A stretch of DNA of 40,969 nucleotides. It comes from Candidatus Staskawiczbacteria bacterium RIFCSPLOWO2_01_FULL_43_17b (GTDB taxonomy: Bacteria; Patescibacteriota; Minisyncoccia; Minisyncoccales; Staskawiczbacteraceae). Below the pieces are notes generated by a model. It worked only from the letters and a program-made list of their open reading frames with translations. It was not told where the DNA came from and ran no database searches. Where the stretch lies: NCBI GenBank assembly GCA_001820305.1, contig MHPC01000002.1, forward strand, positions 1 to 40,969, written 5' to 3'. Both the position numbers and the translations under genes were made by a program. Positions within the stretch are counted from its first letter, which is position 1; every line of letters begins with the position of its first letter. Positions 13,240-13,650 of this stretch are shown here, piece after piece.

Positions 13240-13273
13240 CAAGGATTTGATTTTGCTAGAATGCTATTATCAA
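13240..13273 (+). promoter_or_regulatory. consensus sigma70 promoter (TTGACA - 17 nt - TAGAAT)
   Basis: perfect -35, 17-nt spacer, near-consensus -10; no ORF follows. Confidence 0.65.
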
Positions 13274-13280
13274 AGGAAGG

Positions 13281-13650
13281 AACGAGGGAACGGGTCAACC
13301 GTTTTCAGAAAGCTATCAGGATTGATGGTTTTCTGAAGGCGGTTGGCAGGCACCCACCATAGTGATGAAAGTCCTGCGGGCTTTCAAGTTGTCTGGCTAG
13401 GTCCAACGAAGGAATTCGAGCGCACACGGGTCTCTTTGAGGGCAAAAAAGAAAGCAAGAGGCTTTTGAAGGGAATCTCCCTTATAAGACGCTCCGCGATT
13501 TTATCGCATACCCTTCACCATGCCAGGCATCTTTCCTGTTTCAACCGCCTATTGCTCTTTTCATGTTTCGATGTCTCCCGAAAGGGTGCGGCATCGACTC
13601 CGGGCGGTGCGGAATGTCACATTTCGCATCGCCTTTTTCTTTGCAAATTT
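13281..13650 (+). ncRNA. candidate structured ncRNA of unknown class (about 370 nt) ending in a GU-containing 12-bp hairpin + U-tract terminator (13607-13650)
   Basis: strong promoter, clean terminator (GGCGGTGCGGAA-tgtcac-TTTCGCATCGCC TTTTTCTTT), no credible ORF; contains GAAAGTCC.GCGGGCT and GAAAGGGTGCGG blocks reminiscent of RNase P CR-I/CR-II but spacing/3' half do not fit. Confidence 0.4.

Follow-up and report, generated by a model that had tools for sequence, protein, structure and literature searches.

Among described RNAs, those closest in general form to the locus considered here are the stand-alone regulatory RNAs with protein partners (6S RNA, mycobacterial Ms1 and the CsrB-type sponges), which are conserved over genera or phyla, and the large RNAs OLE, ROOL, GOLLD and raiA, which are defined by covariation in many genomes and are all in Rfam. 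In CPR bacteria, structured insertions accumulate in and near the stable RNA genes (PMC11270868, PMC13011429). More than half of the CPR rRNA insertions are group I-like (PMC11270868), and about 40% of the Patescibacteria genomes carry group I introns, some of which are found by only one of two covariance models (PMC13011429). RNase P RNAs lie below the Rfam default cut-offs in 10 of 35 complete CPR genomes, and the diverged CPR forms are still detected at low bit scores (Lui et al., PMC8172020).

The unit that we compare with these systems is a 415-base stretch of the genome of a Candidatus Staskawiczbacteria bacterium, an uncultured organism from groundwater, between dacA (a cell-wall enzyme gene) and a tRNA-Ile gene. 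It spans 13234-13643 of the window, by which we mean the whole stretch of DNA that was analysed (40,969 nucleotides), and it would be a self-contained gene for a highly structured non-coding RNA (ncRNA) of about 375 nt. Like the protein-binding regulatory RNAs, the unit has its own strong promoter, an intrinsic terminator and no obvious antisense target, and its RNA is predicted to be long and mostly double-stranded, an irregular rod with paired ends; the analogy in function is one that we only infer. Unlike them, it has no 6S-type central bubble, no Rfam match and no repeated protein-binding motif (GGA hairpins), and it is seen in one species. With OLE, ROOL, GOLLD and raiA it shares a large size, an intricate predicted fold, and the features by which it was flagged (intergenic position, GC enrichment and structure), but it has neither the Rfam matches nor a second species. 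As for the CPR rRNA and tRNA insertions and group I introns, the unit resembles them as a lineage-specific structured non-coding insertion, in a region that also holds such elements (e1 in a tRNA-Ile copy and e3 in the 16S rRNA gene, described below). It differs from them in being intergenic rather than within a host RNA gene, in having its own promoter and terminator, and in showing neither an RF00028 signal nor similarity to the e-family or the 16S insertions.

The reading that we favour, and to which we give a little under an even chance, is that the unit is a real gene, transcribed on its own, whose product is an accessory structured RNA and represents a new family known to date from one species.

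Transcription signals

The promoter and the terminator are called purely by consensus match. Together they delimit the predicted transcript:

13234-13239, + strand: -35 hexamer TTGACA, from the promoter scan
13254-13262, + strand: extended -10 element TGcTAGAAT, from the promoter scan, with TAGAAT at 13257-13262 and TG just before it
13269-13643, + strand: predicted transcript of about 375 nt, which would start about 7 nt past the -10 element and end within the T-tract
13602-13643, + strand: intrinsic terminator with a 15-bp stem (13602-13634), a 3-nt loop and the tail TTTTTCTTTG, P = 0.99

The candidate promoter is of the sigma-70 type, has a 17-nt spacer, agrees with the consensus at 11 of 12 positions, and is joint-best in the local promoter scan. 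The initial annotation had given it as a perfect TTGACA-17-TAGAAT at 13240-13273; its hexamers and spacing stand, with the 11/12 match to the consensus, and its coordinates lie 6-11 nt too far right. Sites of at least 11/12 number six in the window, against 0.7 +/- 0.7 in 40 dinucleotide shuffles (about 8-fold), and this enrichment makes the candidate promoter more than a chance match. All four such sites on the + strand, the strand that holds every long ORF of the window, are intergenic, and those other than the candidate are all upstream of genes.

The terminator lies about 340 nt downstream of the candidate promoter. Its stem (13602-13634) has 8 G-C and 3 G.U among its 15 pairs and shares first place in length among the terminator-like stems that were scored in 1-40000. 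The hairpin described earlier, with 12 bp and two G.U pairs at 13607-13650, was roughly right. The tail CTTTTTCTTTGC is common to this terminator and to the one at 11535-11556 that follows an ABC transporter gene.

No terminator-like site is found on the + strand between the dacA stop (13226) and 13602. The sortase-dacA operon must therefore rely on this hairpin for its own termination, and at least some of the transcripts of this region would be 3' UTR read-through. It is conceivable that the interval is nothing else than the 3' UTR and the terminator of that operon, with the internal promoter a chance or minor signal. We regard this as improbable, because the promoter matches at 11/12 with an extended -10, in a class of sites that is 8-fold over chance and whose other + strand members precede genes, because the relatives manage with a spacer of 41-121 nt after dacA, and because a GC-enriched, strongly folded UTR of 375 nt would itself need an explanation.

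Similar signals are seen elsewhere in the window. In the tRNA-Thr/16S interval, a promoter at 38620 (TTGACA-16/17-TAGAAT), one of the four + strand sites and the nearest to the candidate in sequence, has a spacer resembling that of the candidate (GGATTT..ATTT), and about 100 nt later there is a terminator-like hairpin (CCGCAAAG..CTTTGCGG) with a T7 run. This segment (38620-38765) is about 440 nt before the 16S gene and might yield a small AT-rich transcript or act as an attenuator in the rRNA leader. The region 18367-18886 begins with another of the top-scoring promoters (TTGACA-17-TATGAT, with TG upstream). Some 490 nt then lead up to the next gene, with a run of GATTTG/GTTGAT-like short repeats and no long ORF, and they could represent either an extended leader or one more non-coding unit.

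Predicted secondary structure

The + strand of 13268-13645 folds with a predicted energy of -156 kcal/mol, z = -6.9 (about -6 to -7) against 100 dinucleotide shuffles, and the - strand of the same segment with -120.5 kcal/mol, z = -2.5. This asymmetry between the strands arises from the 17 G.U pairs among the 131 pairs of the fold. Control windows of 378 nt taken every 1.3 kb have a mean z of -1.1 (sd 1.8), and the interval has the lowest energy among the 62 folds of that control run. Since z <= -4.8 is also reached in 4 of 60 control windows, the score of the interval is in the tail of the distribution and is not unique. The GC content is 50% in the interval, against 44% in the window and 45% in coding sequence.

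About 70% of the bases are helical in the predicted fold (131 pairs, 262 of 383 nt), and most of the helices have a pair probability (P) above 0.9. The elements of the fold are:

13271-13286, + strand: 5' strand of the closing helices, pairing with 13555-13562 and 13636-13643, P 0.56-0.91
13288-13304, + strand: hairpin 1 (GAACGG / CCGUUU, loop GUCAA), P = 0.82
13305-13336, + strand: hairpin 2, a 14-bp stem with 2 G.U, P = 0.97
13337-13550, + strand: central domain, an irregular rod of about 210 nt closed by the long-range helix 13337-13350/13535-13550
13366-13386, + strand: side hairpin UGAAAGUCC-UGC-GGGCUUUCA, which contains the block called CR-I-like in the initial annotation, P = 0.93
13387-13397/13522-13532, 13400-02/13517-19, 13408-12/13512-16 and 13418-22/13489-93, + strand: helices of the rod, P = 0.86-0.99
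13444-13460, + strand: purine-rich 17-nt loop at the tip of the rod in the MFE fold, on an apical stem of P ~0.1
13568-13597, + strand: GAAA-tetraloop hairpin with GAAAGGGUGCGG, the block called CR-II-like in the initial annotation, P = 0.92-0.98

With 13271-13286 paired to both 13555-13562 and 13636-13643, the two ends of the RNA would be held together. The apical part of the rod (13428-13480) is poorly defined, with P about 0.1, and the purine-rich 17-nt loop is the only long single-stranded stretch of the predicted fold.

Strongly negative fold z-scores on both strands are also seen around 9366-9620, where 550 nt precede the ABC transporter gene. The scores are explained only in part by a small ORF located there, whose N-terminus (MFFVYILEC..YAGCTNNLEKRL) is GIY-YIG-like.

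Comparison with known RNA families

The unit matches no known RNA family. At the gathering threshold, Rfam 15 finds only tRNAs and the 16S rRNA in the window, and at E<=10 (over 1.2 kb, and for the 401-nt interval alone) it returns only unrelated noise of 10-17 bits, among which the RNase P, tmRNA, SRP, 6S and group I models are absent. The scan at low threshold matters because CPR RNase P RNAs can miss the default cut-offs (PMC8172020). A covariance scan of the interval had been proposed as a check in the initial annotation, which reported no tmRNA or SRP motifs by eye and judged RNase P to be unsupported. The scan finds no family in the interval, and both judgements are borne out.

RNase P RNA deserves the closest look. 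It is similar to the unit in its length (about 375 nt for the unit), in the tRNA neighbours, and in two short sequences, GAAAGUCC and the 12-mer GAAAGGGUGCGG of the E. coli M1 RNA. The two blocks that had been likened to RNase P RNA, GAAAGTCC.GCGGGCT and GAAAGGGTGCGG, are indeed present, at 13367 and 13580 respectively. The models RF00010, RF00011 and RF02357 give no match down to about 10 bits, however, and the motif tests are negative, with no match to CR-I (GAGGAAAGUCCGGGC) or CR-V (ACAGAAnnCGGCUUA), which in RNase P RNA build the long-range helix P4 of the catalytic core, within 3 mismatches inside 13234-13650. According to the fold, GAAAGUCC has GGGCUUUC as its partner, only three bases downstream (P = 0.93); strands engaged in such a local hairpin leave no P4 pseudoknot to surround a catalytic domain. 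The 12-mer GAAAGGGTGCGG is identical to nt 179-190 of M1 RNA, and a shared word of this length is reached in only 10 of 2000 shuffles. These nucleotides belong to what we take to be the J12/13-P13 region, not CR-II, and by that map the earlier CR-II label is wrong. [quoted passage not shown] Two 8-mers common to the interval and M1 RNA are at the chance expectation, the shared words are not collinear, and nhmmer --max finds no match between the interval and the E. coli M1 RNA (rnpB).

Could the unit be a diverged CPR housekeeping RNA, either RNase P RNA or a tmRNA, SRP or 6S RNA? Its length, its place beside tRNA genes, the words shared with M1 RNA and the capacity of CPR RNase P RNAs to score under the Rfam thresholds (PMC8172020) would all suit such an RNA. 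We nevertheless hold it to be highly improbable. None of the four models appears even in noise of about 10-16 bits, ARAGORN reports no tmRNA, the CR-I and CR-V consensus sequences are unmatched, the would-be P4 strands pair locally, the 12-mer would fall in helix P13, which is not known to be conserved between phyla, and the direct comparison with M1 RNA is empty. Compared with RNase P RNA, the unit has no covariance signal, no CR-V, no full CR-I and no specificity-domain architecture, its P4-like strands make a simple hairpin, and it is not conserved in the relatives. An essential RNA is also not expected to be missing from the sequence space of all relatives, and we reject RNase P RNA as an essential, conserved gene on the same ground: the unit is missing at the syntenic site in the relatives, and in 241 M JGI metagenome records it is seen in the same species only.

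The remaining families can be treated briefly. For tmRNA, whose marks are a tRNA-like domain built from both ends and a tag reading frame, ARAGORN finds none in the window, and no tmRNA family matches the interval. For SRP, the Rfam scans of the window and the interval give no match; the run AGGUCC..AGGAA..AGC at 13399-13421 resembles SRP helix 8 by eye, with a 6-nt loop in place of the GNAR tetraloop and AUUCGA instead of the AGCA of the conserved symmetric loop (AGG / AGCA), and is rejected, as these bases have other partners in the MFE fold (P = 0.99) and no model supports the resemblance. The 6S RNA is rejected with no RF00013 match and a fold that is multi-branched and twice the ~185-nt length of 6S.

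The unit might also descend from a group I-type intron, decayed or strongly diverged, or from an rRNA or tRNA insertion sequence that has become intergenic. Such a descent is suggested by the size of the unit and by the abundance of group I introns and group I-like insertions in these genomes, some of them caught by only one model of two (PMC11270868, PMC13011429). This origin appears very unlikely to us: RF00028 is silent at E<=10 even for the 401-nt interval alone, no flanking exon is seen, the nested MFE fold needs no P3/P7 pseudoknot, and the unit owns a promoter and a terminator. Intron-tolerant ARAGORN gives no credible split tRNA; in its relaxed form it makes one extra call, a tRNA-Thr with a 643-nt intron, which is judged spurious as it reuses the 3' half of tRNA-Ile. 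Resemblances to segments of the Tetrahymena and Azoarcus group I cores are short, in the wrong order or structural context, and have no model support; they are rejected.

Open reading frames

The interval contains ORFs at 13343-13468, 13465-13659 (64 aa, the one already reported in the initial annotation and present in the ORF list), 13520-13654 (44 aa) and 13563-13667 (34 aa), the last two starting with ATG. One or several of these might encode small proteins of 34-64 aa. The ORFs themselves invite this reading, and the missing Shine-Dalgarno sequence is only weak evidence against it, because several genes of the window have no obvious one at their starts as read. The other observations leave such proteins hardly credible. 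The 64-, 44- and 34-aa ORFs cross the terminator and end past the T-tract, so that a terminated transcript would not contain their stop codons, and the start codons are buried in predicted helices of high probability. No gene is called in the interval in any of 22 same-species contigs (NCBI, ENA, JGI and Logan, from several assemblers). A protein homologue for any frame had been named at the outset as what would speak against an RNA gene; the concatenated six-frame translation has no match at E<=10 among 5.8 billion (5.8e9) protein clusters.

With its own promoter, an intrinsic terminator and no coding potential, the unit shows the generic marks of an independent ncRNA gene. The earlier proposal of a stand-alone ncRNA thus agrees with the in silico promoter and terminator, the strand-specific structure, and the lack of a coding signal and of a called gene in the 22 contigs.

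Occurrence in related genomes

The DacA-like protein encoded upstream of the unit is 100% identical to a protein from a RIFCSPHIGHO2_02 Candidatus Staskawiczbacteria MAG (Parcubacteria, CPR). The same-species copies of the unit are 100% identical, and so is the flanking DNA, which means that a comparison within the species carries no information. As the unit and its flanks are identical across the NCBI, ENA, JGI and Logan assemblies, the unit is not an assembly artefact.

Beyond the species, DacA homologues at 56-67% identity are plentiful, and their neighbourhoods differ. The closest of these loci (L007, DacA 67% identical) has retained the tRNA-Ile gene together with its promoter (TTGACT-17-TAAAAT), with 41 nt from the dacA stop to that promoter, compared with 437 nt in the window. 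A second genome (P0130), whose MBL-fold protein is 73% identical, has the order dacA, 121 nt, MBL, PF1765, ftsZ; the distance between dacA and the MBL gene in the window is 1.64 kb. The dacA-tRNA-Ile interval of related CPR genomes had been singled out for comparison in the initial annotation, and in the nearest relatives it is without the unit. Because the spacer is short in the relatives that have no unit, the unit looks like a lineage-specific insertion of about 414 bp, and its absence from close relatives indicates that the RNA is dispensable for the lineage. The cassette would have entered between dacA and the tRNA-Ile promoter, and an insertion of this kind would make the RNA accessory and not housekeeping.

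The edges of such an insertion may be marked by a direct repeat:

13228-13235, no strand assigned: left copy of the 8-bp direct repeat TGCAAATT, read from the sequence
13642-13649, no strand assigned: right copy of TGCAAATT, 414 bp from the left copy

The pair may be a target-site duplication or microhomology. Its chance probability is, by a rough estimate, a few percent, which makes it weak evidence. Deleting 13236-13649 leaves a spacer that can be aligned with the "empty" site of L007.

Searches for the unit elsewhere cover several collections. A six-anchor degenerate scan of 241 M records of JGI metagenomes returns one contig, which is from the same species; the IMG/VR viral contigs and the phage and plasmid collections (by blastn for phages and plasmids) give no match; and the unit is absent from 150 kb of loci of related CPR bacteria. 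As every copy found is from this species, neither covariation nor conservation lends support to a functional structure or RNA. By these searches the unit appears to be an orphan, found in one species only, and it would be either very young, or foreign, or evolving beyond recognition.

The same observations bear on the alternative that we take most seriously, even though we consider it rather unlikely: that some 414 bp of inert or selfish DNA, foreign or mobile, were left behind by an insertion in a hotspot between dacA and the MBL gene, perhaps transcribed and of no use to the cell. An intron-like or MITE-like element in decay is one possible source, a piece of a phage or plasmid another, and the structure would reflect that origin and not a present function. 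In favour of a relic, the site is empty in the closest relatives and has the 8-bp repeat TGCAAATT on both sides, the 1.6-kb spacer also holds e1, e2, element A and a tRNA-Ile that is duplicated and broken, structured insertions are known to gather around the stable RNA genes of CPR genomes (PMC11270868, PMC13011429), and the GC content is 6 points over the window average. On the other hand, the unit has no second copy in the window or in the 150 kb of fetched loci, no terminal inverted repeats, and no phage, plasmid or IMG/VR match, and neither the folding asymmetry nor a complete promoter and terminator at its ends would be expected of random debris.

A bolder version joins the RNA gene and the insertion into one. 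The unit might be the first example of an undescribed class of large structured RNAs that travels as a complete promoter-to-terminator cassette and inserts with an 8-bp duplication beside CPR stable RNA genes, a mobile RNA gene that brings along no protein gene. The spread of small structured elements into the 16S rRNA and tRNA genes here would agree with this version, which we rate as a long shot.

Repeats in the neighbourhood

Other small elements, palindromic in form, are found in the dacA-MBL spacer. The candidate RNA has no sequence similarity to the two-hairpin core (e-family), the tRNA pieces or element A, which are described here as observations on the region.

The intact tRNA-Ile(GAU) gene (13786-13860) is nested in a decayed and fragmented second copy, of which three pieces remain: the 5' part as far as the anticodon loop (13706-13739), the anticodon arm (13871-13900) and, at 14171-14197, the 3' T-arm with the acceptor and CCA. 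Upstream of the broken copy is the tRNA promoter (13664-13692), and an 11-bp stem (GTCCCGATAAA / TTTATCGGGAC) brackets the piece that contains the intact tRNA-Ile. Element A is palindromic (TCCCGATAAATTTAGC..GATACGGGATCCCGTATC..TTTATCGGGA) and has two copies, at 13731-13881 and 26738-26812. Its loop holds the whole intact tRNA-Ile at the tRNA locus and just ATACT at 26738, and its terminal repeat resembles the anticodon stem-loop of tRNA-Ile.

A core of about 210 nt, with two long hairpins, occurs in three copies (nhmmer E 1e-13 to 1e-26), and the long inverted repeat that encloses the core differs from copy to copy (29, 34 and 17 bp). Copy 1 (e1, 13899-14170) is inside the T-arm of the broken tRNA-Ile copy, copy 2 (e2, 14605-14879) is directly upstream of the MBL-fold gene and overlaps its start, and copy 3 (e3, 39285-39527, in reverse orientation) forms a 258-nt insertion in the 16S rRNA gene. 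As the core is common to 16S, tRNA and intergenic sites, in at least one case a CPR 16S "insertion sequence" is a member of a dispersed family of MITE-like repeats. A same-species contig (L018, 4305-5420), compared with the window from 14143 onwards, switches within e1 to an unrelated ribosomal protein L33 locus; whether this is a repeat-induced assembly join or a rearrangement, it implies further copies of the e-family elsewhere in the genome. The 16S rRNA gene has a second insertion of 884 nt (39956-40820) with a 199-aa ORF (40212-40811), presumably a homing endonuclease, as such enzymes have been described for CPR rRNA insertions.

Possible role and significance

If the unit is an independently transcribed, accessory RNA, as we favour, then its form suggests a stable scaffold that binds or sequesters a protein rather than a regulator that acts by base-pairing. 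This guess is made because about 70% of the bases are paired, the 17-nt loop alone is free, and the window has no complement of at least 12 nt; antisense targets of this length and paralogues are at nothing above chance in the 41-kb window. The role as a scaffold is the weakest step of our proposal, and we think of it as doubtful.

In its class, the unit would be a well-formed but unsupported candidate, known from a single species, within the broad class of stand-alone bacterial ncRNA genes. The idea of RNase P for this unit can be dropped, and the spacer between dacA and the MBL gene is to be seen as an insertion hotspot. CPR bacteria have tiny genomes and yet tolerate many structured non-coding insertions. 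If the unit is expressed, it would be a rare case of a large, species-specific structured RNA recently gained by a streamlined genome, and a concrete target for the metatranscriptomes of the Rifle aquifer.
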